Shown here piece after piece: positions 4,920-62,441 of a stretch of DNA of 64,000 bases; position 1 is the first letter of the stretch; the number at the start of each line of letters is the position of its first letter. The position numbers and the translations under genes are program-made. The notes beneath the pieces were generated by a model, which saw only the letters and a list, made by a program, of their open reading frames with translations, was not told the DNA's origin and did no database searches. The DNA is taken from the NCBI GenBank assembly GCA_900319955.1, contig ONQM01000003.1, positions 17,654-81,653 on the forward strand. The letters are read 5' to 3'. This DNA is from an uncultured Eubacteriales bacterium (GTDB lineage Bacteria; Bacillota_I; Bacilli_A; RF39; UBA660).

Positions 4920-5004
4920 AGTGTCACTACCCTTATCCTTATATAATGAATTATATCACATATAAAAAAAAATAACTATATTTTAGTTATTTTTATATTA
5001 AAAA

Positions 5005-8127: not shown

Positions 8128-9020
8128 TACTCAGCACCTACATTCTCGTTATAATATTTTTCTCCTTTAATGAGAAAATAACTATTAATCAAAATTATAC
8201 CATGAAGTAATAATTTAACATACCATCTATCAAGTAAAAGGATATAACTTTCCTTACCTAGTAAATACTGAACTAAAAGGACAAGTACATATAGCATAAT
8301 ACCAAATTGTAAGAACCTCTTATGGAAGTTAGCTCTATCAATTCTATCTCTGTAAACACCTTCAACAAGAGTATCGATATCAAGTTGCATCTGCTCTAGT
8401 GAGTCTGCTGAGTTTCTCGCACCTTCCTTAGTTATCTGTAAGAATAATTGATGCATATTTTTAACTATATAAAACGGATATAAATTATTAAAATATTTAA
8501 TTGATTCATCAATGGAACCATTTTTATAAGCAAGCTCTATCATTCTATCAACATCACCAGCAACTGGATCTTCAAGAAGTCCAGATTCTCTAACACCTTC
8601 CAAACTTTTAACAAAAGATTGTCGAGTTGCAAATTCCATAATAGTGTTAGATGTATATACCTGTATTTGTTCAAAGATAAACTCACTATATATTCTTTTA
8701 CTTCTCAAATAAGCAAGATAAGGAACAAGTAAAATACCAAGAAAAACATATAAAGCTGCAGTAAAGATGTTATAGAAATATAAGTATGCAATAAGTCCTG
8801 CAAAACCACCTATTAAAACACACTGTATAATATAATCTCTAGGCTTATATTCCTTACCCAACTGCTTTGTCTTCTCTCTTACTTTTTTATATGAATAAGG
8901 AGCAAACTTATCATAAATAGATGTTATTTGGTCATTAATAAATCTAGTCGCATTCTTACCACTATAACCTCGATACATCATTACAAATATAGCAATAACT
9001 AATAGTATAAATAATTCCAT
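8127..9020 (-). CDS. TadB-like inner-membrane platform protein (T2SS-F domain family)
   Basis: 297 aa with an N-terminal TM, a roughly 200-aa cytoplasmic domain and two C-terminal TM helices. It is a paralogue-like partner of the adjacent gene and sits directly downstream of the CpaF-type ATPase. Confidence 0.55.
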   Translation of the reverse strand: MELFILLVIAIFVMMYRGYSGKNATRFINDQITSIYDKFAPYSYKKVREKTKQLGKEYKPRDYIIQCVLIGGFAGLIAYLYFYNIFTAALYVFLGILLVPYLAYLRSKRIYSEFIFEQIQVYTSNTIMEFATRQSFVKSLEGVRESGLLEDPVAGDVDRMIELAYKNGSIDESIKYFNNLYPFYIVKNMHQLFLQITKEGARNSADSLEQMQLDIDTLVEGVYRDRIDRANFHKRFLQFGIMLYVLVLLVQYLLGKESYILLLDRWYVKLLLHGIILINSYFLIKGEKYYNENVGAE

Positions 9021-9025
9021 ATATC

Positions 9026-10435: not shown

Positions 10436-10473
10436 TATCTCACTTCCACTCTTTTATTCTTTTATTCTTAATC

Positions 10474-11280
10474 TTATTGCATTGAATCTGTCCAATAAGT
10501 GACATTATTGATAAAGTCTTTAATATCTTTAGATGAAAGCTTTAAATCACCTGGATTAGACTTCTTACTTTCTGCAGTAGGAACTGGAGAAAGTTCAGTA
10601 CTATAGTTTCTTAAGTAATCTGCTTTCTTAAGTAAGATATAATATTCTTCTGGTACAGCAAATATTAACTGAGATGGTACTGCATTTTCATTTGTATTAG
10701 AGAATACATTCTTACCACTACTATCTCTAACAGCAAGTACTTTAACATTCTCAAGTAACTTACCAACCATAACTTTACCATTATTAGGATCATTTTCATC
10801 AGTAGATCCATAAGTAGCCTTAAAGTAAAGATCAATATAATTACCAGGGTATATTGAATTACTATAAGTAGTTTCCATATTAACACTCATATAATATAGA
10901 ACATATCCTTTTGGATAATCAAGAATAATACTATCAGGTAATTGATCTTTTTCAACAACACATCTAGTATAGAAAAGACTTCCAGAAGGAATCAAACAAT
11001 CTGCACCAGAGTATTTATCAATAACACTCTGTTTAGATCTATAAATATCACCTTTTATCATAGAAGGAGGAACTTGAGCTTCCCCAACCATGTCTTCTGT
11101 TATTTGAGTACTTGGATTAATTTCCTGAAGAGCATAAGGAACACTAATTGGATTAGTAGCTTGTTTAACTCTCCAGTTATAACCTATATATAATACAAGA
11201 ATAGCAAGTATTACACCAAGAACTGTAACAGTATTCTTATTAGTTAAAAATTTCTTTAAGCCAACCGTTATATTATTCAT
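10474..11280 (-). CDS. CpaB-like Flp/Tad assembly protein (N-terminal TM anchor plus SAF-like domain)
   Basis: 268 aa. TM helix VTVLGVILAILVLYIGY followed by a SAF-like segment (...PYALQEINPSTQITEDMV...), resembling the CpaB/RcpC N-terminus. It is positioned directly upstream of the CpaF-type ATPase, as in tad loci. Confidence 0.5.
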   Translation of the reverse strand: MNNITVGLKKFLTNKNTVTVLGVILAILVLYIGYNWRVKQATNPISVPYALQEINPSTQITEDMVGEAQVPPSMIKGDIYRSKQSVIDKYSGADCLIPSGSLFYTRCVVEKDQLPDSIILDYPKGYVLYYMSVNMETTYSNSIYPGNYIDLYFKATYGSTDENDPNNGKVMVGKLLENVKVLAVRDSSGKNVFSNTNENAVPSQLIFAVPEEYYILLKKADYLRNYSTELSPVPTAESKKSNPGDLKLSSKDIKDFINNVTYWTDSMQ

Positions 11281-11290
11281 TTTATTCCTC

Positions 11291-11794
11291 CTATTTACTT
11301 GGTAAATTATTTAAACCATTATAACTTGTAATCTTTAAATCTTTAATATAATCCTTATTTTTAGTTGTAACAGCTAAATTGTCTTTATTCTTAGTTTCAA
11401 TAATCATATCTGCAGTAGTTGTAATATCAACTTTATTTTCCCCACCTAATGCTTTTACAACAACAGTATTCTTAGGAGAAATTACTCTTATACTAACCTT
11501 AGGAGGTGTTTCATTAATATCATAAACTTTAATGTCATAATCACGAGTTCCCTCAACATTATTAGCAAAACGTTTTACAAAACTTTCCATAAACTTCTCT
11601 TTATCCATTCTGAGTAAGCCACTCTCTCTAAAGAAAGTATTATCAACTGCATCATTCATAGCAGCTTCTGTTGTCTCTTTTAATAGATAATAATCAAGTT
11701 CAGCACCAGTTTGTTGTCCACTAATAACACTAATTGAATAGAAACCTAATATTGCCATTAATATAATTCCAATTGTTAAAAATGCCTTATTCAC
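11291..11794 (-). CDS. Hypothetical small membrane-anchored protein (candidate pseudopilin-like or accessory component)
   Basis: 167 aa. N-terminal hydrophobic segment AFLTIGIILMAILGFYSISVISGQ, then a soluble domain. No TadE/Flp consensus was recognised. Confidence 0.5.
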   Translation of the reverse strand: MNKAFLTIGIILMAILGFYSISVISGQQTGAELDYYLLKETTEAAMNDAVDNTFFRESGLLRMDKEKFMESFVKRFANNVEGTRDYDIKVYDINETPPKVSIRVISPKNTVVVKALGGENKVDITTTADMIIETKNKDNLAVTTKNKDYIKDLKITSYNGLNNLPSK

Positions 11795-11811
11795 TATTAA
11801 TCACACTCCTA

Positions 11812-14800
11812 TTAACTAGCACTCTTTATAAAATTATTAAGAGTAGTCTTAGTATCCTCATCTATATCATAACTTGTTAAAGGATCACATGCTGTTCCAT
11901 TAAGAATATTATTACATTTTAATGCTTCTTCACTAGGCTTTCTAAGTAAAGAACCATAGCCTTCTGTAGTATTCTTACTACCCTCTGGTGAAGTTCTTAA
12001 AAATTTACTTACATAATACTTAATAGTTGGAATATCACTGCTTGGAGCATCATAGCCACCTTTTTCAGATGTATCTAATTTTGTAGCATCAGTATAATAT
12101 CCTGCATTCTTATATGCATCCCAATAATCTTCATTATTAATTGTCTTATAAGTACCATTTTTAAAATAAGTATAATCTTTATCACCATTTGTAATTTTAC
12201 GAATATTTTCTATATTCTTTTTATTTAAATAAATTTCATAATCAAGTTCATTATCATTGTTATAAATACTATCACCTTGAGATTTAATCTTAGCTGCTAA
12301 AAGTGTTGGTGTAATAGGATAATTAGCTATAGATAAATTAGTAGCATTAACACTCCAGTTAAAACCAGGTTGTCTGGAAGCAGAAGCACTTGTTTTTGCA
12401 TCTGCAACCTTCTTTACATTACCTGCTTGATACTCTACAGTACTTGTTGAAACTTTAGTAGATTTAGAAACCTTATTAGATGTTGGTTTAGTTCCACTTG
12501 ATGTAAACATATTTTGACTGTCATATGATCTAGCAACATAGTTACCCATTCTAGTTGTACATGTTTTATCAGTCTTATTATCACATGATGAATCAGGAAT
12601 TGATGAACATCCAGTACCAGTACAAGATACAGTCTTACAATTTGGATCCTTTGTTGTATCACAACTTGAAGTTTTTGTAGGATTTGGACAATTCTTAGTA
12701 TTAATTGGTTCAGGATCATCATCAAGTGCATAATAACATCCAGTCTTAAACTTCCAATCAAACATACCAAAGCTTTCTACCTTACTTATAATGTTATAAA
12801 CATCTGGTGTTGATTTACTAACTTTATCAAGTGTACAACCATTCTTAGCTCTTAGATATTCATCGAAGAATTTAACATTAACTTTCTTAGCAGTTGATGG
12901 TGTACAATACTTACCACTAACTTTCTTATACCATTGAGATTCTGCTGACATATCATCATAAACTACATAACCATGTTTATTTTCAATCCAAGCACCAGGG
13001 AATGTAATTATACCATGATATTGTGTAATTAATGCTTTAGTATTATTTTTCCAAGTACAATCAATCTTATTTCCATTTGCATCAGTATAAGAATCAGTCT
13101 TACCATCACAACCATCTACAACCTTACCAGCACACTGTCCAGCATTTAATTCAACAACTGTTGGGAATGAATGTGAAGCATTATTTAATTCTTTCTTCTT
13201 CTGCTCTTCCCCTTTTGCACTTGGGAACTTTCTACATAATTCTTGATCATAATTGCTTCCCTCACAAGATTGCTTATCAGTACTTGTATTATCAGTATCA
13301 TCATTTGCAGTCATAGTATAAGTGATACTATTGTCTTTACAATCATTTGCAGTATTTATACAATCAGCAATTTTACCAGTAAATGAAGATAAATCTTTTT
13401 CAAATTGTTTTTCAATCTCACCGGCAGTATCATAACAAACTGAAGTTGATGAAGATTTAGACCATTTGCAATTCCAAGTACAATTTTCATTTCTTCTAAA
13501 TCCAACACCATCATTATGTTCATCTTTAGTAGTATTTGGATAATATGAAGCACCTTTTTCATACATACCTAAGAAGCATTTATTCCAACCAAGTTTCTTA
13601 CATTCACTATAATTTGTTTCAGGAGAACATGTTGTGCTACCAACTAGCCAACTATTCTTATAATGATAATCTGTACAAACAGTTAAAGCTGCCATAGATT
13701 TATTCTTAAAATAATACTTAGCATATTTAGTCCAATAGCAATCAGAACTTGTTGCACTATCAGAGCCTTGAACATGTGAGTTAACATAATCATAAACTGC
13801 ATCAATATATCCATCAGGAACTTTTCCAGGAGTCGTACCACTTGCTAAAGTACCAGGGAAGTTTTTACATATTTCAGATTCTGTAAATTTAGAACCCTTA
13901 ACAGTATCGGTTTTCTTTAACTTAATTACATCACTAGATGTTGATTCTTTACCTTCTGTTGTTAATACATTATTATTTGAATTTTGTGCTAAATTATTTG
14001 ATACTTTTGATGTACTTGATACTTTTGTACCATATGCTTTATTAAAACATTTATTTATACATTTATCAGAATATTTTCCACCATCACAATCCAAAACGCA
14101 TAAATCAAATTCATCATCTGGTCCAGCTGATGCTGTATGTAAATCAGGTTTATTAGAATTTCCACCACCACATATAGGTGTATCTTGACAAGAAGCATTT
14201 TCATATTTTCTAAAATCAGGAATCTTATCAAAATCAGGTTTTACCACACATGATGTAGTACTCTTAATTTCTACTTTATATGTAAAACAATTACCAGGAG
14301 TTACAGCTTGAGGTGCATCAAATGCTATTGCAAGTTGTTCACGACAAGTATAACTGCAAACATTTTGAGCAACAGTTTTCTTAGAAGTTAATCCACTTTG
14401 ATTGAATAAAAGCATATCAGCTTTTACATCTTCAGCCTTATCATAATATAAATATTTATAAGTTTTTTCATTATCAAGTCTATTATCACAAGTTAACATA
14501 TCTTTTTTATTAGATTCTGCATTTTCATAACCAGTTTTATTAGTAGCTTGGTCTTTTAATTTGTCTTTACTGTCACGACCCTTTTTACTTAAGTCAGGAT
14601 CATCGACCTTTATCCATTTTTTATCTGATCCTTGAGTTAAATCAGGTAGTTTTGGATTATCAGGATCAATTCCTAAATCTCTCATTTTAGCTCTTTCAGA
14701 AATATAGTCTTCAAAAGTTTTTTCAAATGATGCCATATCTTCCTTTATCTTAGTAAGAATTTCATCTGAAATATTATAATCAACATAAGCATCTTTTGCA

Positions 14801-15969
14801 TCGTATCCTACAACCTTATCTCCACTAACAGAAACAGCTAAATTACCATTAGAATATCGAGGGAAACAAGGACCCATTGTTTTATTAACAAGAGCATCAG
14901 TATACTCATTCCATTCAGAATCAGATGCATGCTTATAGTATGATTTTACTGCCCATTCACATGCAGAGCCAGAACTAAAATCAGCAGATGTAGTTCTGTT
15001 TGTATTAGATGCAGCTATATTATTCAATATATTTGCTTCATCCTGTAAATCGCCACCATATGTTGTGTAATATGATTTTATTGTCATCTTCTTTTTGTTT
15101 TTCTTAGCATAAACTATGAATATTGCATATTCTCCACTATTTTCCACTTTAAAATCATATGTTGTATGCTTTGATGGTGTATAAGTTATAACTTTATCAT
15201 GTGGACCATTTGCATGATTTGCATACCACCAGTTTGTATATGCTTCTGCGCAAGTCTTATTGTTTACTCCTTTTTTGTTGCACGCATCTTTTTTCTTATA
15301 ATGTTTTACTTTTGCATCATATTCATCTTTATCAAAATCAACTGCTGCAATTTTTATTTTTTTATCTGTTGCATCCCCATTAGATATAAAAGTAACTGTT
15401 GAAGGGTCTGATATATGAAATTGGACTTGAAATCCAAATAATGATACATCAACTGGTTCTGGGTCAGTTAATGAACCTACATCAACTGAATCAGGATCAT
15501 CAACATCCTCATCTACATCAGGTTCTTCAGCTGTAGTAGTTGTAGTACTTTCATTTGAAGTTGTGCTTGAACTATTACTTGATGGTGTATATGAATTATT
15601 GCTAGTAGAACTGCTGCTTGAACTTGAGTTTGAATTAGAACTGTTAGAGCTTGCTTTAGCAACACATTCAGCATGTTTAGAATCAATTACATGTCTAGCA
15701 AAACCATCATTACATTTACAATTTGTACCTTTACTAGAAGCCCAAGAAGCATTTGCTTCGCAAGAACAAGTACTTCTACTAACTTTCTTACAATCACCAT
15801 TTTTCTTTTTGGCACCTGTACAATGACTTAATGTACCGCATCCATCAGCTGCATATACATTACTTTTGTTATTAAAATTTACATCGATTGTAAATCCAAA
15901 TAACATTACAATGGCTAGTAAAAATATTCCAACCCTCTTTTTATAACTATTTTTAGACATCTTCGCCAT
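11812..15969 (-). CDS. Giant cysteine-rich secreted protein (1385 aa) with a Ser/Thr-rich linker, an acidic region and many CxxC/C-rich modules
   Basis: Signal peptide MAKMSKNSYKKRVGIFLLAIVMLFGFTIDVNFNNKSNVYA-ADGCG. Poly-Ser/Thr linker SSNSSNSNSSSSSSSTSNNSYTPSSNSSSTTSNESTTTTTAEEPDVDEDVDDPD. Dozens of Cys are spread through the protein (e.g. TSSCDTTKDPNCKTVSCTGTGCSSIPDSSCDNKTDKTCT). There is no LPXTG-type C-terminus. The start overlaps the upstream sortase gene by 17 nt. Confidence 0.8.
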   Translation of the reverse strand: MAKMSKNSYKKRVGIFLLAIVMLFGFTIDVNFNNKSNVYAADGCGTLSHCTGAKKKNGDCKKVSRSTCSCEANASWASSKGTNCKCNDGFARHVIDSKHAECVAKASSNSSNSNSSSSSSSTSNNSYTPSSNSSSTTSNESTTTTTAEEPDVDEDVDDPDSVDVGSLTDPEPVDVSLFGFQVQFHISDPSTVTFISNGDATDKKIKIAAVDFDKDEYDAKVKHYKKKDACNKKGVNNKTCAEAYTNWWYANHANGPHDKVITYTPSKHTTYDFKVENSGEYAIFIVYAKKNKKKMTIKSYYTTYGGDLQDEANILNNIAASNTNRTTSADFSSGSACEWAVKSYYKHASDSEWNEYTDALVNKTMGPCFPRYSNGNLAVSVSGDKVVGYDAKDAYVDYNISDEILTKIKEDMASFEKTFEDYISERAKMRDLGIDPDNPKLPDLTQGSDKKWIKVDDPDLSKKGRDSKDKLKDQATNKTGYENAESNKKDMLTCDNRLDNEKTYKYLYYDKAEDVKADMLLFNQSGLTSKKTVAQNVCSYTCREQLAIAFDAPQAVTPGNCFTYKVEIKSTTSCVVKPDFDKIPDFRKYENASCQDTPICGGGNSNKPDLHTASAGPDDEFDLCVLDCDGGKYSDKCINKCFNKAYGTKVSSTSKVSNNLAQNSNNNVLTTEGKESTSSDVIKLKKTDTVKGSKFTESEICKNFPGTLASGTTPGKVPDGYIDAVYDYVNSHVQGSDSATSSDCYWTKYAKYYFKNKSMAALTVCTDYHYKNSWLVGSTTCSPETNYSECKKLGWNKCFLGMYEKGASYYPNTTKDEHNDGVGFRRNENCTWNCKWSKSSSTSVCYDTAGEIEKQFEKDLSSFTGKIADCINTANDCKDNSITYTMTANDDTDNTSTDKQSCEGSNYDQELCRKFPSAKGEEQKKKELNNASHSFPTVVELNAGQCAGKVVDGCDGKTDSYTDANGNKIDCTWKNNTKALITQYHGIITFPGAWIENKHGYVVYDDMSAESQWYKKVSGKYCTPSTAKKVNVKFFDEYLRAKNGCTLDKVSKSTPDVYNIISKVESFGMFDWKFKTGCYYALDDDPEPINTKNCPNPTKTSSCDTTKDPNCKTVSCTGTGCSSIPDSSCDNKTDKTCTTRMGNYVARSYDSQNMFTSSGTKPTSNKVSKSTKVSTSTVEYQAGNVKKVADAKTSASASRQPGFNWSVNATNLSIANYPITPTLLAAKIKSQGDSIYNNDNELDYEIYLNKKNIENIRKITNGDKDYTYFKNGTYKTINNEDYWDAYKNAGYYTDATKLDTSEKGGYDAPSSDIPTIKYYVSKFLRTSPEGSKNTTEGYGSLLRKPSEEALKCNNILNGTACDPLTSYDIDEDTKTTLNNFIKSAS

Positions 15970-16756
15970 CTCCTTCTAATATTTTTTTGATTTTTTTATA
16001 GTCCTTCTTTTCATGCATATCATAATTATACCCTTTATTACTATTTTTTACAAGTTTTCCATCAACTTTTAAATAATAATGATAAGGACCTAATAATCTC
16101 GTACACGTATATAAAGAAATTAACTTATCTTCTTTATTTACATCAATATCATATTTATAAATACTTTCTTTTAATGAGTCTTTTATAAATTTTTTCTTAA
16201 TTGTTTTTGTAATGCTATTAGGAAAATAATAAACTTCATTATCATTTATTATTGAAACACCATATATTTGATATAAATAATTAACATTGTTAAATGTAAA
16301 TTGTATATACTTATTTTTATCAGCAAAATCACTATAAACAAAAGCCATTAATGGTTCAAATCTTTGCAATTTCTTATCATTTACCTTTGGATGTGGTCCA
16401 ACATTAATATAGTTGTGACCAAAAATTGGAATAAAATCTGAAAGTTTTTTTTCAGGTTTATTAATCCAAGCATAATTATCAAGTGATGGATATGTTTCAG
16501 ATGAAACTGGCATATCAATGTTAGTACCTTGTACCTTAATCCATCCAATTACCTTATCTTTTTTACTTTTCTTTTTCAACTTCTCAACATTTTTTGTTCT
16601 ATCTTCTACCTTATATATAGGGAAAAATTTATTACTGATTTTCTCTCTATTTATAACAAGAATTATAGCAAACAAAATGAGAAGTAATAAAAGAATTATA
16701 ACATGTTTGTTTATCATCTTTGATGCTTTTTTTTCTTTTCTTATATTTCTTTTCAT
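15953..16756 (-). CDS. Class B sortase-like transpeptidase (SrtB family)
   Basis: N-terminal TM anchor. KVIGWIKVQGTNIDMPV matches the SrtB N-terminal signature (compare S. aureus SrtB IVGWIKLSGTSLNYPV and C. difficile SrtB IGWLQVQDTNINYPV). The His motif is IFGHNY and the Cys motif is KLISLYTCT (TLxTC-type). The position aligned to the catalytic Arg is uncertain and may be His. Confidence 0.7.
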   Translation of the reverse strand: MKRNIRKEKKASKMINKHVIILLLLLILFAIILVINREKISNKFFPIYKVEDRTKNVEKLKKKSKKDKVIGWIKVQGTNIDMPVSSETYPSLDNYAWINKPEKKLSDFIPIFGHNYINVGPHPKVNDKKLQRFEPLMAFVYSDFADKNKYIQFTFNNVNYLYQIYGVSIINDNEVYYFPNSITKTIKKKFIKDSLKESIYKYDIDVNKEDKLISLYTCTRLLGPYHYYLKVDGKLVKNSNKGYNYDMHEKKDYKKIKKILEGDGEDV

Positions 16757-16775
16757 ATTACTCCTCTATCCTATA

Positions 16776-18527
16776 CTAATAACTTATTGTATATGGGTCT
16801 TGCTTAGTTCCAGAACCACTAACAACTACTGCATCATTTCTTAAATAACCTGCAATCTTTGTTGAAGATGCATAAGCAAAATTTGCAATTGGAAAATAAA
16901 TTGTACCATTTCCACTACCATAATATTGCTTATATTTTTTACTATACTCTATATACCAAGTTTGACCATTAATATTTGAGTAAAAATCAAATAAAGATGG
17001 CAACGATATTTTAATATTATATGTTTTTGATTCATGTTTTCCATTGTATGTTGGATATGAACTATATATATTTGCAGAAACTTTATGTTTTTTAAATATA
17101 TTAGTACTAATTTGTCTAGAAATATTATTTTCTACTGAATAACCAATATTATTATTTTTATTTGGGTTGTATTTACTATTATTAACTATGTTATCATCAA
17201 ACTCATAAGAATAATTTGATATAACTTTAACATTTTTTGAATCATTAGAAGAAACTCTAAATAATTGTCCTCTATATGAAATATACTCTCCTACTCTTAG
17301 TTTACTAACTTTTGTTCCACCTTTTAATTCCTTGAAGTTATCTATTACATATGGATTCTCATAAGATCCAGTTCCTTTTTTAATTAAAGTACTCTTTTTA
17401 ATAACAAAAACTGGCCTAACACTAAATATATAGTTCTTATTATAGTCTAAATATTTACTAGACTGACCATTAAATGAATATCTAGTTGTCCATGCCTCTT
17501 TACTATTTTTACTATTATACGTCCAACTAATAGTATCAGGATAAAGAAAACTTCCCCCCTCCTTTGTTAAGCTACTATTATACTCATTTATTGACAAAAG
17601 TCCAGAATTTCCAATATTTTTCTTTGAATTACATGTTGTTATTTTGTCTTTATCTTTAGATGAAACGGTATCAGAACAGAAATTATAGTTTGTAACAACA
17701 TACTTCTTACTATCATTAGTTAAAGTGTCATAAAAATCATTCAAGTAATCTTTTATTGAATTAAAATCAATATGACCTACATCTTCATTTGCAACTATCT
17801 TTGTATTACCATCACTATCAAGTCCTACTATTCTATAAAGTTGTCCACTAAACATTATGTAATTATCTCCATCACCAACATAAACATTACTCTTACCAGT
17901 AGCTTTCTCAACTGTCTTAGAAAGATTTTGTGTAACCTTAACAGTTCTAGTTACTTCAGTTTTATTCTCTAAAGTATCAACAGCACTATAAGTAATAGTA
18001 TATACTCCATTCTTACTTGTATCAACATCACTTGATACAGCAACATCTTTTGCATTTATTTTACCATCATTATTATCTATAACACTCTTAACACCAGGAT
18101 CTTTAAATTTAGAATATCTTTCTACATTAATAGTATCATTACCATTTAATGTAATAACAGGTCCAGTATGATCTATATTAGAAGAAAATATACCACATTT
18201 TAAATAAGTATAATATAAATACTGTCCTTCTTTTCTTTTTACTTTAACAAAACTATGTCTAGTATCACAAGTATCATGATTATAAGCAGTTCTTAAATCA
18301 GGAATATACTTTTTATCTAAAAGTTCAACACCATTAATAGTTCTAATTTCTCCTTCTTCTGGTAAAAGATTTTTATTTATTTCAAAATATCTTTTAGCAC
18401 CTTTAAGTAAAGTACTTTCATTTTCATTAAACTTAATTAATGGAAATATAAATAATAAATAAATAATTAGTAAAACTCCCGCAATTACAAGTATTTTAGT
18501 AACTGACTTTTTAGTATCATTTTTCAT
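16776..18527 (-). CDS. N-terminally anchored surface protein with a bacterial Ig-like (DUF5011-like) domain and GxGxxxxPY(V/T)I motifs
   Basis: 583 aa. Type-II-style N-terminal TM (ILVIAGVLLIIYLLFIFPLI). HTGPVITLNGNDTINVERYSKFKDPGVKSVIDNNDGKI matches the DUF5011 Ig-like pattern. GTGSYENPYVIDNF and GSGTKQDPYTISY occur in the C-terminal half. No C-terminal sorting signal. Confidence 0.65.
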   Translation of the reverse strand: MKNDTKKSVTKILVIAGVLLIIYLLFIFPLIKFNENESTLLKGAKRYFEINKNLLPEEGEIRTINGVELLDKKYIPDLRTAYNHDTCDTRHSFVKVKRKEGQYLYYTYLKCGIFSSNIDHTGPVITLNGNDTINVERYSKFKDPGVKSVIDNNDGKINAKDVAVSSDVDTSKNGVYTITYSAVDTLENKTEVTRTVKVTQNLSKTVEKATGKSNVYVGDGDNYIMFSGQLYRIVGLDSDGNTKIVANEDVGHIDFNSIKDYLNDFYDTLTNDSKKYVVTNYNFCSDTVSSKDKDKITTCNSKKNIGNSGLLSINEYNSSLTKEGGSFLYPDTISWTYNSKNSKEAWTTRYSFNGQSSKYLDYNKNYIFSVRPVFVIKKSTLIKKGTGSYENPYVIDNFKELKGGTKVSKLRVGEYISYRGQLFRVSSNDSKNVKVISNYSYEFDDNIVNNSKYNPNKNNNIGYSVENNISRQISTNIFKKHKVSANIYSSYPTYNGKHESKTYNIKISLPSLFDFYSNINGQTWYIEYSKKYKQYYGSGNGTIYFPIANFAYASSTKIAGYLRNDAVVVSGSGTKQDPYTISY

Positions 18528-18545
18528 AATCTCTAACCTTCCTTT

Positions 18546-20102
18546 TTATTTTATATCTAATATGTACCTTTTATTTCTTATTGTACATATTATATCTAAA
18601 TCATTACTTGATGCCTCTTTATTTGTTAATTTAATAAATACTTCTTTACCATCATTATGAGTTGAAACTGCATTTTTTACATCATCATATTTATATTTTT
18701 TACTCTTTCCTACTCTGTATTTAATTTTACCATACTCATTTAAAAAGTCAATAAAATCTTCCCCTTCAAAGTCACTACCAGCAAAAGTAATTTTGAGTAT
18801 TTTGCCTTTATTATTTCTTACACTATCTGTATTTACCTTACAGTCATCAGCAGCTTCACAGTAGTATCTTCTATAAGTAAAATTATCACCAATCTCTGCA
18901 GTTAATGGAGTTAACTCTTTATAACTTCCATCCATATATTCAAATTTAATTTTTTTATTTAAATTATAAGTACCAATATCTTTGATATTGCTTATATCAG
19001 TAATATTTAATTTTATTTTTCTTAATATATTTAGATTATCTAGCTCCTGATAATATAAAACAAACTTATTATTCTTAAGCTTCTCATCTTCCTTAAATAT
19101 TAAATAAACTTTCTTGCCTTGTCCACTATATAAGTTGATGTTATCATCAACCCCACTACCAATATCTTTAAATGAATCATTATAAAATGTATTATAAATT
19201 TTTATAGATGATTTATTAACTAAATGATATCTATCAAAATTAACTGTAACTCTTCTATTAGATCTATTAATAACATTAACACCAATTATTACAAACTTAT
19301 TTCCCTTTTCTATAACATTACCTGCATAATCTTTATCAGTAACATAAGCATCAGTAATAGTAATATTATAAATACCAGCATTAAAGCTTTTACCTTGCTT
19401 ATAACTTCTATGTGTTATAAAGAAATTAAATATATTAAATATAAGTATTATTGAAAGTCCAGTAAGAGCTATATTACAAACAAGCTTATGTTCAAAGTAA
19501 AAATACTTAATATTTCTTAAAACTCTATTAAATACCCTTCTAATACTTCTTTTATCAAAGTCAAAAGATACTTCAAACTCTGCTCTATCATCTTCAGAAA
19601 GCTCTAAGAATTCTTTATCTTTTTCGAATCCAAACTTCTTAATATCTGCTCCAAGTATTCTAGCAAGTAAAAGAAACATAATAGGATACATTAGGAAATG
19701 ACTTATATTAATAATATCTCTATAAGGAAGAATACCTGAAAGTTCTGAAAGAGGAGTATAATCACTAAAGTAATTTGAAGCTCCATTAACGCCAACAAGA
19801 ACTAAAACAAATATAGCAAAATAAACAAGATAAATCTTCCAAGGTTTTTTCTTTCTAACAAGAAGTACCATTAAAGCAAGACATGCAAGAATAACAAATA
19901 TAACTGCTAAATAGAAAAGTACTCCAACATGACTTGAAAAGGACTCTACACTAGCATCATAAGACTCAAATCTAATAAACTCCTTAACAAAATTTAATAT
20001 ATTAAGAAGTTTAAAATAAATGAAAACTACACATGCTAAAATAACTATATGTATTTTCTTAAAGTTTTTAATTAAAAAGGCATAAGGTTTTCTAAATATC
20101 AT
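18546..20102 (-). CDS. Polytopic membrane protein (4-5 N-terminal TM helices) with a large C-terminal extracytoplasmic domain; first gene of the operon
   Basis: 518-aa ORF, hydrophobic N-terminal third and a soluble C-terminal domain. It is preceded by a 190-bp intergenic region. Confidence 0.6.
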   Translation of the reverse strand: MIFRKPYAFLIKNFKKIHIVILACVVFIYFKLLNILNFVKEFIRFESYDASVESFSSHVGVLFYLAVIFVILACLALMVLLVRKKKPWKIYLVYFAIFVLVLVGVNGASNYFSDYTPLSELSGILPYRDIINISHFLMYPIMFLLLARILGADIKKFGFEKDKEFLELSEDDRAEFEVSFDFDKRSIRRVFNRVLRNIKYFYFEHKLVCNIALTGLSIILIFNIFNFFITHRSYKQGKSFNAGIYNITITDAYVTDKDYAGNVIEKGNKFVIIGVNVINRSNRRVTVNFDRYHLVNKSSIKIYNTFYNDSFKDIGSGVDDNINLYSGQGKKVYLIFKEDEKLKNNKFVLYYQELDNLNILRKIKLNITDISNIKDIGTYNLNKKIKFEYMDGSYKELTPLTAEIGDNFTYRRYYCEAADDCKVNTDSVRNNKGKILKITFAGSDFEGEDFIDFLNEYGKIKYRVGKSKKYKYDDVKNAVSTHNDGKEVFIKLTNKEASSNDLDIICTIRNKRYILDIK

Positions 20103-21197: not shown

Positions 21198-22973
21198 TTA
21201 CTCTACTGTTACACTTTTAGCAAGATTTTTTGGCTTATCTATATCACAACCCCTCAGATCTGCAACATAATAAGAAAGAAGCTGTAAAGCTGGAACTACT
21301 ACCATAGGTTCAATAAAGTATTCTGCATAAGGAAGTGTAAGTTTTAAATCATAAGGAATATCAAACTCATCTGTTGTAATAAGTATACCTCTAGCACCTC
21401 TTGACTCAACCTCTTTTAAATTAGAAAGGGTCTTATCTTTAATATTTTTATCAGTGATAATTGCAAAAACCACTGTTCCATTTTCTATTAATGAAATAGT
21501 ACCATGCTTAAGCTCACCTGATGCATAACATTCACTATGAATATATGAAACTTCCTTTAACTTTAAAGATGCTTCCATAGAAATTGCATAATCTATAAGT
21601 CTTCCTATAAAGAAACAATTATCTATTTTATATACTTTATTAGCAAGATCTTTAATTTCTTCTTTTTTACTATAAACATTTTCAATTAAAGAAGGTAACT
21701 TTTTATATTCATCAAGAACATTTTTTTCGAGTTTACCAATTTTAATAGATGTCTTAATGCCCATTAATGAAAGAACAAGTACTTGCATAATATATGCTTT
21801 AGTTGTTGCAACAGCAGTTTCAATACCAGCATCAGTCATAATAACCATATCTGACTCCCTTGCAATAGTTGAGCCTTCTCTATTAACTATACCAAGAGTT
21901 TTAATACCACTTTCTTTAGCTTCTCTTAAAGCTGCAATAGTATCTGCTGTCTCACCACTTTGTGATATTAAAATAATTAATGTATGTTCTTTATCTAAAT
22001 ATATTTTATCTTCATATCTATATTCACTTGCCATATTAACACTTACCTTAATAGATGCATACTTTTCAATTATATATTTACCAGCAAGTCCTGCATGCAT
22101 TGCAGATCCACATGCAACAATATCTATGTATTTATAAGGAGTAAGATCAAACTCACTAAAATCACTATATAAATACTTTGAAAGAAAACACCTAACTAAT
22201 TGAGCTTCTTCCATTATTTCTTTAAGCATATAATGTTTATATTCTCCCTTAGATGTATCAAAATTATAATTTTTAATATCAACTATTTTTTCTTTTACTT
22301 CTTTTAAATCTTTATAATATTTAATATCTTTTTGAGATAATACAGCGACAACATTTGTATCTAAATAAACTATTGATTTAACTTTATTTCCAAGTGCACT
22401 AATATCAGATGCTGCAAAAAACTCATTATCACCATACCCAATAATTAAAGGACTATCTTTTCTTATTGCATAAAGTTTTGTATCACCATCAAACATAATA
22501 ACAAGTGCATAACTTCCCTCTAAATCTTTAACTGCATCACAAATAGCTTTTAGTGCATCACCCTTATAGTAATAATTTATTAAAGCAGCAACTACTTCAC
22601 TATCAGTATCACCATAAAACTTAACACCTTTTTTCTTTAAATTCTCTTTTAATGAATCACTATTTTCAATAATTCCGTTATGAACAAGTGTTACCTTACC
22701 ATTTGTATGAGGATGAGCATTTGATAAAGTAACACCCCCATTAGTTGCCCATCTAGTATGTGCTATACCAAATAAACCATCCATCTTACTTTCATTATTT
22801 ACTTTGTCTTCAAGAGCTTTAACTCTTCCAACACTTTTAATTATTTCTTTATTTTTACCATCAGAAATAGCTATTCCTGCTGAATCATATCCTCTATACT
22901 CTAATGCTTTAAGCCCCTCTATTAAAATCTTTTTAACATTTCTTTTTCCATTATAACCAATTATTCCACACAT
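21198..22973 (-). CDS. glmS: Glutamine--fructose-6-phosphate aminotransferase (isomerising)
   Basis: The true N-terminus is MCGIIGY, with the Ntn Cys2. The ORF-track start at 23069 is a spurious extension that reads through the ribozyme leader. The protein has a glutamine amidotransferase domain followed by two SIS domains, and GGAGG lies upstream of the ATG at 22973. Confidence 0.95.
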   Translation of the reverse strand: MCGIIGYNGKRNVKKILIEGLKALEYRGYDSAGIAISDGKNKEIIKSVGRVKALEDKVNNESKMDGLFGIAHTRWATNGGVTLSNAHPHTNGKVTLVHNGIIENSDSLKENLKKKGVKFYGDTDSEVVAALINYYYKGDALKAICDAVKDLEGSYALVIMFDGDTKLYAIRKDSPLIIGYGDNEFFAASDISALGNKVKSIVYLDTNVVAVLSQKDIKYYKDLKEVKEKIVDIKNYNFDTSKGEYKHYMLKEIMEEAQLVRCFLSKYLYSDFSEFDLTPYKYIDIVACGSAMHAGLAGKYIIEKYASIKVSVNMASEYRYEDKIYLDKEHTLIILISQSGETADTIAALREAKESGIKTLGIVNREGSTIARESDMVIMTDAGIETAVATTKAYIMQVLVLSLMGIKTSIKIGKLEKNVLDEYKKLPSLIENVYSKKEEIKDLANKVYKIDNCFFIGRLIDYAISMEASLKLKEVSYIHSECYASGELKHGTISLIENGTVVFAIITDKNIKDKTLSNLKEVESRGARGILITTDEFDIPYDLKLTLPYAEYFIEPMVVVPALQLLSYYVADLRGCDIDKPKNLAKSVTVE

Positions 22974-22989
22974 ATTTTTCCTCCACAAT

Positions 22990-23130
22990 AAAAATATATA
23001 TGATTCATCTTTTGTTATAATGTTAATTTTATACTTTGTAATGAATCTAACGATTTCCCGTAATAGCATCCGCCGAATAATTCGATAACTATTAACCTCG
23101 TTAACTTTAGAAGTCTGGCGCTTATAATAA
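22990..23130 (-). ncRNA. glmS ribozyme: glmS ribozyme (GlcN6P-dependent self-cleaving riboswitch) in the glmS 5' UTR
   Basis: The minus-strand RNA reads ...A^GCGCCAGACUUCUAAAGUUAACGAGGUUAAUAGUUAUCGAAUUAUUCGGCGGAUGCUAUUACGGGAAAUCG... This matches the conserved core AGCGCCAGAACU / GACGAGG / GUUAUCGAAUUUUCGGCGGAUGC, and the cleavage-site A-G maps to 23122/23121. Confidence 0.8.
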
Positions 23131-23217
23131 ACTTACAACCTTTCTCATTTATTATATTAAAATAATTATAATATTAAAAAAAAAGAAAGTCAAAATACTT
23201 TTGAAAAAAAATATATT

Positions 23218-57959: not shown

Positions 57960-58004
57960 GTAAAAGACGGCTAATTACTTAAAACCGTCTCCTTTTTTAT
58001 CTTT

Positions 58005-60011
58005 TTAATCTTTATAATTATTAACAGCTTTACCATAAACATTAACTCTTAATGCAAATTTCTTATTCTTACTATCAGTATTATATGATTTATCGAGCCA
58101 CATTCTTAATCTGTAATGATATACTACTGATTTATTTGTTGTTACTTTATCAAGTACCATCATTCCCTTTTTAGCTCCATAAGAATCTGCTTTATTTATT
58201 CCCTTATATATTGTTGGAGCAAGAACTTTATAACTGTAAGAAGTATCTTCTGATCTTTCAAGATAAAGTTTAATATATTTTGAATCAATTGTTGATTTAT
58301 CATCTTTTTCTGCAACTACTTCATAACTTACATCACTTGACTTATTCTTTATATTAACACTTACTGTAAAGTCCATATATTCATTAGGATTAGTAAGTAC
58401 CATACCAACACTATCTTCAATTGGAAGAGCATTTGTAAGTGCAATCTTATTTGATCCTTCTGTGTAAACTATTGTAACAGAACCATTTTTGAATGGGTTT
58501 TCATCATCTGGATTATCACAGTTTTTATCACATTTTCCATCGCCGTCTTTATCACAGTTATGATCACACTTGCCATCGCCATCATCATCACAATTTAGAT
58601 TGCATTTGCCATCACCATCTGTGTCGCAGTTTCTATCGCATTTCCCATCGCCATTATCATCACAGTTTCTGTCACATTTGCCGTCGCCATTCGTATCGCA
58701 ATTACGATCGCATTTTCCATCACCATTGTCATCACAGTTTCTGTCACATTTGCCATCGCCATTCGTATCACAGTTTCTATCACATTTACCGTCGCCATTC
58801 GTATCGCAATTACGATCGCATTTCCCATCGCCGTTATCATCACAGTTTCTATCACATTTTCCATCGCCGTTATCATCACAGTTTCTGTCACATTTGCCAT
58901 CGCCGTTATCATCACAGTTTCTATCACATTTGCCATCGCCGTTGTCATCACAGTTTCTATCACATTTTCCGTCGCCATTCGTATCGCAATTACGATCGCA
59001 TTTGCCATCGCCATTGTCATCACAATTTAATTTACAATCTTCTGCACATTTTCTATCACATTTGCCATCTCCATCATCATCACAGTTTCTATCGCATTTT
59101 CCATCGCCATTATCATCACAATTTAGATTGCATTTACCATCTCCATCTGTATCGCAGTTTCTATCGCATTTGCCATCTCCATCAACATCACAGTTTCTAT
59201 CGCATTTTCCATCGCCATTATCATCACAATTTAGATTGCATTTGCCATCACCATCTGTGTCGCAGTTTCTATCACATTTGCCATCACCGTTGTCATCACA
59301 GTTTCTATCACATTTTCCATCTCCATCATCATCACAATTTAGATTGCATTTACCATCTCCATCTGTATCGCAGTTTCTATCGCATTTGCCATCTCCATCA
59401 TCATCACAGTTTCTATCACATTTTCCATCTCCATCATCATCACAATTTAGATTGCATTTACCATCTCCATCTGTATCGCAGTTTCTATCACATTTGCCAT
59501 CTCCATCATCATCACAGTTTAAAATACATTTTCCATTTTCATCATATTCTATGCATTTATCTTTCTCACATACACTTGTTGTACATTTAGTTCCTTCACA
59601 ATTTTTAATAGTACATTTTCTTCCTTTACATGAAACATCTGTACAAGAACTACCATTACAGAAATTATCAGAACACTTATTAGTATTATTACAAGCTCTA
59701 CACTTACTTCCATTACATATTTTATATGAACAAGTATTCTTCTTTTCATTACATATTACATAAGTACAAGCCTCACCTTTACAATATCTATATGTACAAA
59801 CATCTCCATCACATTCTTTATATACTTTGCTAAAAGATCCAATATTATATAGATATTCATAATCATCACCATTTTTATTATTTGTTGGTGAAAACAATCT
59901 ATATGACACTCCTACTATCAATATAACTAATAAAAAAATTAAAAGTAAAATTATGAATATTGCTTGTTTATCAAGATCATATTTTTTATTTTTCTTATTT
60001 TCTTTTCTCAT
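58005..60011 (-). CDS. Cysteine-rich secreted/anchored protein with about 27 tandem 12-aa calcium-binding-like repeats (NCD[DT][DN]GDGKCDR; TSP type-3-like)
   Basis: N-terminal TM (IFIILLLIFLLVILIVGV). About 20 short Cys-spaced units (CTYRYCKGEACTYVICNEKKNTCSYKICNGSKC...) before the first 12-aa repeat. The central array is CDDDGDGKCDRNCDTDGDGKCNLN..., about 27 copies. A C-terminal domain of about 170 aa follows. On the DNA, the 36-bp units are nearly identical. Confidence 0.8.
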   Translation of the reverse strand: MRKENKKNKKYDLDKQAIFIILLLIFLLVILIVGVSYRLFSPTNNKNGDDYEYLYNIGSFSKVYKECDGDVCTYRYCKGEACTYVICNEKKNTCSYKICNGSKCRACNNTNKCSDNFCNGSSCTDVSCKGRKCTIKNCEGTKCTTSVCEKDKCIEYDENGKCILNCDDDGDGKCDRNCDTDGDGKCNLNCDDDGDGKCDRNCDDDGDGKCDRNCDTDGDGKCNLNCDDDGDGKCDRNCDDNGDGKCDRNCDTDGDGKCNLNCDDNGDGKCDRNCDVDGDGKCDRNCDTDGDGKCNLNCDDNGDGKCDRNCDDDGDGKCDRKCAEDCKLNCDDNGDGKCDRNCDTNGDGKCDRNCDDNGDGKCDRNCDDNGDGKCDRNCDDNGDGKCDRNCDDNGDGKCDRNCDTNGDGKCDRNCDTNGDGKCDRNCDDNGDGKCDRNCDTNGDGKCDRNCDDNGDGKCDRNCDTDGDGKCNLNCDDDGDGKCDHNCDKDGDGKCDKNCDNPDDENPFKNGSVTIVYTEGSNKIALTNALPIEDSVGMVLTNPNEYMDFTVSVNIKNKSSDVSYEVVAEKDDKSTIDSKYIKLYLERSEDTSYSYKVLAPTIYKGINKADSYGAKKGMMVLDKVTTNKSVVYHYRLRMWLDKSYNTDSKNKKFALRVNVYGKAVNNYKD
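58515..59520 (-). repeat. Intragenic tandem repeat array: 36-bp period, about 28 near-identical copies, coding
   Basis: Repeating units such as gtttctatcgcatttcccatcgccattatcatcaca are visible directly (plus strand). All three minus-strand frames and two plus-strand frames are open across the array, which produces artefactual ORFs. Confidence 0.85.
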
Positions 60012-60113
60012 AATAACATATCCTCATCTTTTATCTTTAATTATATTTTAGCAAGTAAAGGAAAGAATGTAAATACTAACAACAACAAAAATGTAAAATA
60101 AAAACTCTAAAAA

Positions 60114-61301
60114 TTATTTTACTAATTTCTTAGAGTCTTCTTCTTTAAATAATATATTTTTTTTATATCTTTCATATGCATCTTTATATGTTCTTGAATT
60201 TAAAGGAATTCCTTTGCTAACAATATAATCCATAATAGATAATTTTTCTTCCTCAGTTATTTTTCTACCAGACCCAGGTATAATATTTCCATATTTATCA
60301 AATTCAGGATTTAATGTAACTATGCCTTTAACTAAAGTTTCTTTTTCATATCTTGTCAAAGGCTTCAAATCATTCTTTCTTATGAAACTAGATATTTTTC
60401 TTTTATCACTTGGATTACATTTAAAATTAACAAGTTGTTCTTTTAAAGAGCTTATAGGAAGTTTGGTAAGACTATAATAGTCTAAACTATCAAATTCTCT
60501 TATTCCCATATCACCATCAATTCCATTTACGATATTTTTAAATATTTTATTAGCAAGCTCAGTATCAAATGATACTTCTTCTTCTATTTTTATACCTAAT
60601 TTTTCTAAATATTCCATAAATATATCAATATTTATTCTTCTTTTATAGCAAAATTTTTTTATATCATAACATGATTCATTTTCAAATTCTTTAACATAGT
60701 TTATATACTTTTCTTCTTTTTCTTTTTCTAACACTTTAGAATATTCATTTAAATAATATTCATAAAACTCATTTGTATTTTTTATAACAAGTTTCCTATC
60801 AGTATCACTTAAATATGGATCATTATTTAAATAGTTTTCAACAGATTTTCTAAATGTTTCTGGTGTTTTTAACATTTTTATGAATTCATCATATTTAGTT
60901 TTATCGTTAAATATAACTATTAAGTTAACAATATAGCCTGTCTCTTTACAAGCTGCTACTTGCATATAATTTCTATTCTTTCTTAATCTATACTCAGGTA
61001 TTTTTTCTTCTAAAAATTTATGATCTACATAAGAATATACACTTTCATTTTCTTTTAAATATAAATTAAGTGATTGTCTAAAAGAAGCAAGAGAAAGTAT
61101 TCTCCTTGAATTGTATGACATATTTTTAAAAATAGTAAATGCATTATTAACTATTTCATCACTTTTTCTTTCTGTATCAGACATTTTGTTAAAGCACTTT
61201 AAAACATCTGCACAAAGCTGATGTTCTATATTATTATCTTGTTTTCCTTTTAACACATCTAATAATTCTAATATTTCATTATATAAACTTTTATTTATCA
61301 T
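60114..61301 (-). CDS. Hypothetical protein
   Basis: 395-aa ORF. No family recognised. Confidence 0.5.
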   Translation of the reverse strand: MINKSLYNEILELLDVLKGKQDNNIEHQLCADVLKCFNKMSDTERKSDEIVNNAFTIFKNMSYNSRRILSLASFRQSLNLYLKENESVYSYVDHKFLEEKIPEYRLRKNRNYMQVAACKETGYIVNLIVIFNDKTKYDEFIKMLKTPETFRKSVENYLNNDPYLSDTDRKLVIKNTNEFYEYYLNEYSKVLEKEKEEKYINYVKEFENESCYDIKKFCYKRRINIDIFMEYLEKLGIKIEEEVSFDTELANKIFKNIVNGIDGDMGIREFDSLDYYSLTKLPISSLKEQLVNFKCNPSDKRKISSFIRKNDLKPLTRYEKETLVKGIVTLNPEFDKYGNIIPGSGRKITEEEKLSIMDYIVSKGIPLNSRTYKDAYERYKKNILFKEEDSKKLVK

Positions 61302-61850: not shown

Positions 61851-62441
61851 TTAATCAACACCTCTTTGAACTAAATTAATTAATATTCCACATATCGCAC
61901 ATATTAAAACCTCAATTCCTGTAACTGCAAGAAAGCTTGACCATAATGTTGTTGTAAAACTAAGATTTAATGTTACAAGATAATAGAATAAATTATATAT
62001 TAGGCAAGCAAAAACTAGATTTATTATTACAAGTGGAAGTGGAGTTTTAAAGTTTGCAAGCATATAGTTATATATTAATAAATTTAAGAAATTACTTATA
62101 AAGAATGCAAAACATATTCCAAAATAACTATCAAGTGTAAAATTTTCTCCAAATATTAAATCCAAAAGAAAATTCATAACAACAAACATAATAGTTCCAA
62201 TAATAGTTGCAATAACACCAGATTTATACCCAACTTCTTTTAGAATCACATCAATAAGGAAAAATATAAATGGAAGTATAAATATATTGTAAGAGAATTT
62301 CATATCAAATACATAAAATGTAAATGAATTTAAAGATACATAAAATATTATAGTCGCTATATAAAGAAATGTGTATGAAAAGCTTAGACTTCTTGCATCT
62401 TCATCTATCCTCTTCTTCTCTTTTTTAGATAATTTTTTCAC
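61851..62441 (-). CDS. YhhQ/Vut_1 (DUF165)-family membrane transporter (queuosine-precursor transporter family)
   Basis: 196 aa, about 6 TM helices. LIDVILKEVGYKSG resembles the conserved F..DV..E.YG motif of the family. Confidence 0.5.
   Translation of the reverse strand: MKKLSKKEKKRIDEDARSLSFSYTFLYIATIIFYVSLNSFTFYVFDMKFSYNIFILPFIFFLIDVILKEVGYKSGVIATIIGTIMFVVMNFLLDLIFGENFTLDSYFGICFAFFISNFLNLLIYNYMLANFKTPLPLVIINLVFACLIYNLFYYLVTLNLSFTTTLWSSFLAVTGIEVLICAICGILINLVQRGVD

Follow-up and report, generated by a model that had tools for sequence, protein, structure and literature searches.

A tandem 12-residue repeat with calcium-loop motifs, inserted between the membrane anchor and the head of a surface protein from an uncultured rumen Bacillota, as a candidate stalk

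The subject of this study is a single gene in a 64,000-nucleotide stretch of DNA, hereafter the window, from an uncultured Eubacteriales bacterium (contig ONQM01000003.1 of assembly GCA_900319955.1, positions 17,654 to 81,653 of the forward strand). The gene sits directly upstream of Tex, and the best explanation of its product is a membrane-anchored surface protein, N-terminus in and C-terminus out, of an uncultured rumen member of the Bacillota with low guanine-plus-cytosine (GC) content. Between the anchor and a C-terminal beta-sandwich head, this protein carries 27 tandem units of 12 residues, every one with a calcium-loop motif. It seems probable to us, if by no means strongly so, that these units form a calcium-stiffened stalk of adjustable length which holds the head away from the cell. 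The anatomy of the protein, the point of insertion, the purifying selection on the repeat peptide, the spread and placement of the repeat in other proteins and the length variants among assemblies are established below. We prefer the stalk because of the insertion point, the existence of an orthologue free of repeats, the use of the repeat as an anchor-proximal module in many unrelated proteins, and selection that acts on the peptide and not on the DNA.

Results

The repeat region is an insertion between anchor and head

The initial annotation, made from the letters of the window, had described an N-terminal anchor, a prefix of regularly spaced Cys, about 27 units of 12 amino acids and a C-terminal domain, and the open reading frame, a regular expression and the hydrophobicity profile all agree with that layout (19 Cys in the prefix, 163 amino acids in the domain; Table 1). 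There is one strongly hydrophobic segment only, at amino acids 17-35, with a maximum of 3.65 on the Kyte-Doolittle scale with a 19-residue window (KD19). The prefix, in which Cys recurs at every fifth residue, is made of 10-residue units C-x-G-x-x-C-T-x-x-x, and its final 14 or so residues are a degenerate 12-residue unit. In a Pfam-A scan of the whole protein with hmmscan at E ≤ 1, the sole match was a spurious one of FixQ to the transmembrane segment.

Searches with the C-terminal domain recovered 18 close relatives of about 200-300 amino acids, in which a hydrophobic N-terminus ending in G-V-S-[FY]-A-x-F is followed directly by the head and repeats are absent. An exhaustive profile search enlarged this family to 4,723 cluster representatives (50% identity) at E ≤ 1e-3, with 1,932 at E ≤ 1e-10, and most of the 4,723 have the typical layout, about 200 amino acids with the head following the anchor at once. 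The head motifs of the family are T-[IM]-x-Y-T-E, N-A-x-P, F-D-F-T-V, Y-R-L-R-M-W and V-N-V-Y-G-K, and no Pfam domain was found on the head in the 61 members scanned. The family is present in several copies, often in tandem, in metagenome-assembled genomes labelled uncultured Bacilli, Tenericutes, Clostridia or Erysipelotrichaceae; the family profile found no further copy in the window.

The window protein is a member of this anchor-plus-head family (hmmsearch, E 7e-61), and it matches the profile in two pieces. Amino acids 18-52 fall on profile positions 7-41 (the match of the anchor region there has E 1e-5) and amino acids 506-666 on positions 40-198, with nothing between. The Cys-rich region of about 440 amino acids has thus been inserted precisely where the anchor meets the head. 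The orthologue P0003, a protein of 223 amino acids with no Cys and no repeats, occupies the same place directly upstream of Tex, and because this syntenic orthologue is free of repeats, the insertion is specific to a lineage. The nearest non-allelic relative (at locus L094, with a head 66% identical) is also encoded upstream of Tex and consists of the anchor, about 290 amino acids of the Cys-every-fifth-residue module (55 Cys) and the head, without 12-residue units. The Cys module thus arrived first, and the 12-residue array was added later in the window lineage. Unrelated low-complexity linkers occupy the same site in P0037, P0085, P0105, P0129 and P0148, and the junction of anchor and head, judging from such examples, evidently tolerates spacers.

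The L094 gene (contig ERZ27280385 k141_968574) has an in-frame TGA at positions 734-736, where the Cys-every-5/3 pattern leads one to expect Cys (CEI*KGDKC). A nonsense mutation or an error of sequencing is the probable cause; selenocysteine at this codon is less likely, as no hairpin like a selenocysteine insertion sequence (SECIS) follows (z -0.53).

The unit is conserved as a peptide

The 27 units stand in phase at amino acids 166-497, in blocks of 13 and 14 (regular expression CD..GDGKC...), with the consensus C-D-x-[DN]-G-D-G-K-C-[DN]-x-N. Tandem Repeats Finder reports a period of 36 with 28.3 copies (score 910), in agreement with the 36-bp array first annotated, and a period of 108 (score 1117). 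All 27 units contain Dx[DN]xDG, a motif established as calcium-binding and known from a variety of structural settings (PMC3123361), which bears out the calcium-loop likeness noted at the outset; the predominance of acidic residues in the repeat region, given below, is in keeping with it.

The DNA had also been described as nearly identical from repeat to repeat and recently expanded, and this does not hold for most of the array. There are 22 distinct DNA versions among the 27 units, with a mean pairwise identity of 79% in nucleotides (minimum 61%) and 84% in amino acids, and the peptide CDDNGDGKCDRN is encoded by ten units through nine different DNA sequences. Nei-Gojobori counts over all unit pairs give proportions of synonymous and nonsynonymous differences of pS 0.73 and pN 0.10, and a ratio of nonsynonymous to synonymous divergence (dN/dS) of about 0.04. 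With synonymous divergence near saturation and so low a ratio, it is the peptide, not the DNA, that is conserved; purifying selection strongly constrains the unit peptide, and the greater part of the array is either old or synonymously diversified. Recent growth is limited to block 1, the only block in which units i and i+3 are 92-100% identical and make up a higher-order repeat of 108 bp. The longest exact repeat in the window allele is 89 bp.

The unit belongs to a widespread 12-residue repeat

A search with amino acids 60-497 returned at least 781 proteins at E ≤ 1e-3, the best with E from 1e-84 to 1e-32, and 38 ten-unit segments can be aligned with few gaps and a mean column identity of 70%. 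The commoner form, which we call the I/P form, consists of long arrays of N-[IV]-D-T-[DN]-G-D-G-K-P-D-[ILV] (e.g., P0167, P0169, P0176, P0177 and P0264); these arrays accompany MucBP, cadherin-like, Flg_new or unknown domains, and some are followed by a sorting-signal-like motif and a transmembrane tail. A second group, of the Cys form (P0179, P0185, P0187, P0215, P0239 and others), has an N-terminal transmembrane segment, then mixed arrays that include N-C-D-T-N-G-D-G-K-C-D-L, and ends in one of several C-terminal beta domains unrelated to each other. Both forms occur within one chain in P0168, P0170, P0172, P0175 and P0179. The window array has the 12-residue period, the conserved D2, [DN]4, G5, D6, D10 and N12 and the long tandem arrangement that mark the repeat, and its unit is, on sequence, a Cys-for-Pro/Ile variant of a widespread 12-residue repeat of surface proteins of gut and rumen Firmicutes.

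Among the 119 best relatives, the array lies near an anchor in 62: in 55 an N-terminal transmembrane segment is followed by the array within 120 amino acids, and in 7 the array is followed within 80 amino acids by a C-terminal transmembrane segment or sorting signal. The Cys form is confined, among these 119, to proteins with an N-terminal transmembrane anchor and to fragments lacking their N-terminus.

An AlphaFold2 (AF2) model of the last ten units, made from a 38-row alignment of both Cys-form and I/P-form arrays, has a predicted local distance difference test score (pLDDT) of 86.6 and a predicted template modelling score (pTM) of 0.74. In this model DSSP assigns no helices, and single-residue beta-bridges recur every 12 residues at unit positions 1 and 11, which indicates that the array would adopt a regular, repetitive, non-helical structure.

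Neither form of the repeat is covered by a Pfam or NCBIfam model. Searched against PDB sequences, the Cys form gave only compositional matches to circumsporozoite protein and the I/P form nothing below E 0.02, and a literature search for the sequence strings and for bacterial repeats like those of thrombospondin type 3 found no description. The strict 12-residue form, its Cys variant and its insertion into the head family appear to be undescribed, tandem calcium loops and repeat stalks being known kinds. One member of the Cys-form group, P0185 (L095 6001-7059, GCA_947589375.1), has the same CD(D/T)(D/N)GDGKCDRN peptide units ahead of a different C-terminal domain. The possibility that the array was recently acquired from P0185 was considered and rejected, the DNA of the identical peptide units being just 71-75% identical.

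An acidic array of this kind could also be imagined to work mainly by sequestering or buffering calcium, or by bridging anionic polymers of the wall or matrix through calcium, and not as a spacer at all. The 27 loop motifs would suit such a role, as would the charge of the repeat region (107 acidic and 51 basic residues, a net charge of about -56 over 332 amino acids) and the weak resemblance of the head to TasA, a protein of biofilm matrix fibres. However, the repeat is found in hundreds of proteins with domains as unrelated as MucBP, cadherin-like and Flg_new, often between the anchor and the functional domains, and a structural module fits that placement better; moreover, the orthologue P0003 manages without an array. 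We therefore think a calcium store or matrix linker unlikely.

Paired cysteines flank the linker between loops

In the initial annotation each unit was thought to be cross-braced by its own two Cys. Counted over 1,435 units in 119 proteins, the pair that co-varies is a different one, in which position 9 of a unit goes with position 1 of its successor (C-D-x-N-C): both are Cys in 225 cases, the first alone in 1, the second alone in 40 and neither in 1,169. Within a unit, Cys at position 1 and Cys at position 9 are coupled much more loosely (84, 168 and 142). The alternative state of C-D-x-N-C is P-D-x-N-[IV], and in mixed arrays isolated C-x3-C pairs stand amid units free of Cys. On these counts, the co-varying Cys flank the three-residue linker between loops, and not the loop itself. 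Since the Cys pair swaps with a Pro/Ile pair, it would mark a contact in the structural core.

This swap bears directly on the possibility that the Cys themselves are functional, whether by binding thiophilic metals (Zn, Fe, Cu or Cd) in the manner of a metallothionein or by forming cross-links, for example thioethers installed by a radical-SAM maturase. The number of Cys in the exported part of the protein (76, or 11%) invites such an idea for a protein of an anaerobe, and so do the longer module, with 55 Cys, of the relative at L094 and a faint precomputed match of PF27846 (tSAM_targ_Cxxx_rpt) to P0185, which has the same Cys repeat. Yet Pro and Ile or Val, which take the place of the two Cys in homologous arrays, are unable to bind metal, and a position in a structural core accounts better for the exchange. 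The PF27846 match was not reproduced by a Pfam scan of P0185 (E ≤ 0.1), nor was one seen on the window protein (E ≤ 1), and no radical-SAM gene adjoins the gene. A function of the Cys as such is in our view improbable.

Array length among assemblies of the species

The 668-residue protein with 27 units (13 + 14) is found, identical, on at least two further contigs of independent assemblies (L085 and one more). In the scaffolds L086 and L087 the protein is not called, and at least 25 units are present, as 7, a gap of 100 N and 18. L084, whose flanks are 98-99% identical to the window, encodes 464 amino acids with 10 units (4 + 6), four of which differ from every unit of the window allele; L088 also encodes 464 amino acids with 10 units, divided as 1 + 9; and L089 encodes 420 amino acids with 7 units and no interruption between blocks. 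Every one of these length forms (27, at least 25, 10, 10 and 7 units) is in frame. The short forms come from short-read MEGAHIT contigs (k119, k141), and the 100-N gap of the two scaffolds lies inside the array; as no exact repeat in the window allele exceeds 89 bp, a collapse is not forced. Array length may, on this comparison of assemblies, differ between strains.

The locus had initially been viewed as one of the contingency type, prone to changes in copy number. What stands of this view is the variation in size: there are five length forms among assemblies of one species, and in block 1 the 108-bp repeats are 92-100% identical and share the exact repeat of 89 bp. It could then be argued that frequent recombination or slippage at the locus serves variation in size, antigenic or otherwise, and that the length of the array has no mechanical meaning. 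What does not stand is the switching, because a unit of 36 bp means that a change of copy number in register alters length and never the reading frame, so that the gene is not turned on and off. Furthermore, units that are on average 79% identical, with near-saturated synonymous differences, point to less slippage and to an old, selected array, and the short forms themselves may be assembly collapses. We give this explanation little credence. Still less probable, to the point of being nearly negligible, is that faulty assembly produced the feature or that the gene is decaying into a pseudogene. Assembly of repeat arrays is difficult, gaps interrupt the array in two scaffolds and the nearest relative's gene has an in-frame TGA, but the same 2,007-bp open reading frame comes from independent assemblies, no exact repeat reaches the length of the k-mers employed (k119-k141), and the frame is intact, with strong purifying selection and a good ribosome-binding site.

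The head and its resemblance to fibre subunits

The AF2 model of the head (alignment A1) is a beta-sandwich with pLDDT 87.5 and pTM 0.81. Foldseek searches with this model gave weak matches throughout, to jelly-rolls (birnavirus VP2 and phiX174 G), to TasA and to a TasA-like archaeal bundling pilin (7ueg), the highest query TM-score among them being that of TasA, at 0.45. When the profile was compared with that of a TasA/CalY alignment, just the signal region and the first strand aligned (probability 52%, E 1.4e-4); the TasA sequence used for comparison is identical to that of 8AUR. Against PDB sequences the family profile picked up two pilins of Sulfolobus (6nav and 8tib, E 0.014-0.04), with most of the match in the hydrophobic helix. 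Pilin_N matches 4 of the 61 family members, with E ≥ 0.05, and a G/E prepilin cleavage motif is not visible by eye.

Peptidase_M73 (PF12389), the family of TasA and CalY, has no match on the window protein and is not among the top 25 of the 97 families listed for the 61 members. A SipW-type signal peptide model gave E 1.7, which is not significant, and no gene for a SipW-type peptidase (Peptidase_S24/S26) adjoins the family genes in the loci inspected, whole genomes not having been searched. The head weakly resembles TasA, and a role as a TasA-like fibre subunit is a lead and not a family membership.

Anchor-plus-head paralogues form tandem arrays elsewhere, with five full copies and one distant copy at L092 5146-12833 and another array at L090 7298-10042. 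They are bounded by tatD or a 3D-domain gene on one side and by ksgA on the other, and in L090 yabG follows closely downstream of ksgA; the genomes carry sporulation genes, and the arrays resemble gene clusters of pilin or fibre subunits. The absence of any annotation for the head family is a sizeable gap in its own right, possibly connected with biofilm fibres of the TasA type.

The gene and other features of the window

The features of the gene and the genes of one other run in the window are collected in Table 1. Promoter-like sites in this region are not above shuffled expectation, and position is the sole argument for the one listed. The terminator scan did not call the weak hairpin downstream and found no convincing terminator between the gene and Tex, so that co-transcription with Tex is possible. 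The listed start of Tex is a TTG at 57959 (minus strand, 724 amino acids); GGAGG followed by an ATG at 57946 would give a product of 720 amino acids, and this ATG is the more likely start, the 720-residue product being the one called in other assemblies. Two plus-strand open reading frames, 58493-59590 and 58570-59763, were rejected as genes: they are antisense frames opened by the repeat, with nonsense translations rich in His, Ser and Pro.

Table 1. Positions of features in the window
Feature	Position	Strand	Details
Complete coding sequence	58005-60011	minus	668 amino acids plus stop codon, ATG start; open reading frame list
Promoter-like site TTTACA-17-TGxTAAAAT (extended -10 TG)	60045-60073	minus	about 35 nt upstream of ATG; consensus scan
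Ribosome-binding site GAGGA	60021-60025	minus	9 nt before ATG; read from sequence
Basic cytoplasmic tail, amino acids 1-16	59964-60011	minus	MRKENKKNKKYDLDKQ, net charge +4
Single transmembrane helix / signal anchor, amino acids 17-36	59904-59963	minus	ends in family motif GVSY
Short linker, amino acids 37-66 (about 30)	59814-59903	minus	RLFSPTNNKNGDDYEYLYNIGSFSKVYKE
Cys-every-fifth-residue module, amino acids 67-165 (99)	59517-59813	minus	19 Cys, mostly 5 apart
Repeat block 1, amino acids 166-321	59049-59516	minus	13 units of 12 amino acids, 3-unit (108-bp) higher-order periodicity
Interruption CAEDCKLN, amino acids 322-329 (8)	59025-59048	minus	seen in the 27-unit and 10-unit forms, not in the 7-unit form
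Repeat block 2, amino acids 330-497	58521-59024	minus	14 units of 12 amino acids, DNA more diverged
Junction CDNPDDEN, amino acids 498-505	58497-58520	minus	
Beta-sandwich (jelly-roll-like) head, amino acids 506-668 (163)	58008-58496	minus	family profile match E 5e-55
Weak hairpin AGACGG-14 nt-CCGTCT, then TTTA	57965-57990	minus	between stop codon and Tex start
RcpC/CpaB	10474-11280	minus	
DUF5411	11291-11794	minus	
1385-residue protein	11812-15969	minus	51 Cys, no Pfam match
Bact_surface_Ig-like protein	16776-18527	minus	
DUF4352 protein	18546-20102	minus	

Upstream of the gene lie two genes at 60114-61301 and 61851-62441 (minus strand) with a 142-residue gene between them; neither of the two has a Pfam or NCBIfam match and none is on record for the third. 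The order of these three genes is kept in the strain contigs L084-L088, and not in the orthologous locus L001. Elsewhere in the window, the gene run at 7339-20102 (minus strand), to which the last five entries of Table 1 belong, resembles a Tad/Flp-type pilus or surface-structure locus. An open frame of more than 1,651 amino acids at 3-4955 (minus strand, running off the start of the window), with an N-terminus like a signal peptide and long GGxGG stretches, looks like a very large secreted Gly-rich protein and accounts for the 35-40% GC of the first 4 kb. A glmS ribozyme at 22992-23133 (minus strand; Rfam RF00234, 60.7 bits), the sole Rfam match in the window, overlaps the 5' end of a 623-residue open reading frame at 21198-23069.

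Discussion

A scheme can be envisioned in which the ancestral protein was of a form still seen in relatives, about 200 amino acids comprising the anchor and a beta-sandwich head of about 160. In this lineage some 440 amino acids would have been inserted between the two, namely the Cys-every-fifth-residue module, common to the nearest relative, and the 27 loop units. The contiguous loops would bind calcium outside the cell and stack into a regular, non-helical rod, whose core would be filled by the C-D-x-N-C pair (or by Pro and Ile in its place), either as a disulfide or as packed thiols. Such a rod would serve as a stalk that lifts the head off the membrane and through the wall, and the number of units would set its reach, changing in frame through recombination between units.

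Several points weigh against this scheme. That the array binds calcium, is stiff and acts as a stalk is what we infer from the sequence and the models, and the same holds for the redox state of its Cys. Position 12 of the loop is Cys or Ile (Ile or Val in the I/P form), and not the acidic bidentate ligand of EF-hands, so that coordination would need Asp from neighbouring units. In 57 of the 119 repeat proteins no anchor is detectable beside the array, some of them being fragments and others having the array in the middle of the protein. The Cys may be in reduced form, given an anoxic rumen and no enzyme identified that would form disulfides; a cysteine-exclusion rule has been described for aerobic Firmicutes (PMC2823432). 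The short alleles may be assembly collapses, so that the variation in copy number may be only apparent. Lastly, the N-terminal segment may be either retained or cleaved; in the clade of this protein Y-R-L-F or Y-Q-V-Y stands where other members have the A-A-F motif, and with this replacement the segment may be retained as an anchor.

A further-reaching version of the stalk would join it to the resemblance of the head to fibre subunits. The 12-residue unit would then be an undescribed solenoid fold of calcium loops, with one coil per 12 residues around a core of the Pro/Ile pair or the C-x3-C pair, and many uncultured Firmicutes of gut and rumen would use it as a general-purpose stalk across the wall; the head would act as a donor-strand subunit like TasA, and the whole protein an uncleaved, stalk-mounted anchor or nucleator for fibres of the short paralogues. 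Taken jointly, these proposals are doubtful, and we would not expect all of them to hold together.

If the simpler reading, of a calcium-stiffened stalk, is true, a recurrent surface component of uncultured Bacilli of the gut would have been named, and a compact, repetitive rod that can be switched by calcium would be open to structural tests or to protein design. The locus provides a clean natural experiment, with the same head with and without an array at a syntenic position, a Cys pair against a Pro/Ile pair, and possible differences in length between strains.

Comparison with known systems

Tandem Dx[DN]xDG loops are known to build calcium-dependent extracellular structure in thrombospondin type 3 repeats, dockerins and RTX proteins. 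RTX and dockerin or EF-hand loops are extracellular Asp/Gly-rich repeats that fold only with calcium, and the dockerin loop D-x-N-x-D-G-K resembles the D-x-N-G-D-G-K of the units. The similarity to TSP_3 or dockerins that the initial annotation had suggested is nevertheless not carried by any Pfam match at E ≤ 1, nor by any Pfam or NCBIfam model over the repeat. Dockerins and EF-hands are recognised by a loop flanked by helices and by a match to a hidden Markov model (HMM), whereas this protein has no such Pfam match and the AF2 model of its array no helices. In RTX proteins (HemolysinCabind, PF00353) the repeat is the nonapeptide GGxGxDxUx; the period here is 12 and not 9, and again there is no Pfam match.

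The closest chemical parallel is with TSP_3 (PF02412), the calcium 'wire' of thrombospondin (PDB 1UX6), which shares with the array contiguous Dx[DN]xDG loops (PMC3123361), little regular secondary structure and Cys between loops. The differences are that no TSP_3 HMM matches this protein (Pfam, E ≤ 1), that the period here is a strict 12 residues where thrombospondin alternates motifs of 13 and 23, that the Cys are spaced C-x7-C-x3, and that the setting is a bacterial protein with an N-terminal anchor. Set against the TSP_3 loop DxDxDGxxDxxD, all 27 units have Asp at loop position 9, and the next Asp is 4 residues away and not 3.

In architecture, the array is like the SD (Ser-Asp) stalks of the staphylococcal Clf/Sdr MSCRAMM proteins, which are acidic, low-complexity spacers of variable length between an anchor and a functional domain. 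Those, in contrast, repeat a dipeptide and have neither a Dx[DN]xDG motif nor Cys, and their anchor is a C-terminal LPXTG signal. The sole NCBIfam matches of the window protein (NF033609, NF000535, NF012181 and NF033845) reach 52-61 bits against cut-offs of 999-2500, cover acidic repeat regions only and are compositional. The SD-repeat stalks are thus a functional analogy and not a case of homology, and thrombospondin type 3 a chemical analogy, family membership being found in neither case. A third parallel is with the antifreeze protein of Tenebrio molitor, a Cys-braced beta-helix in which each 12-residue repeat forms one coil and contains two Cys. This layout would fit the i to i+12 bridge pattern of the AF2 model.

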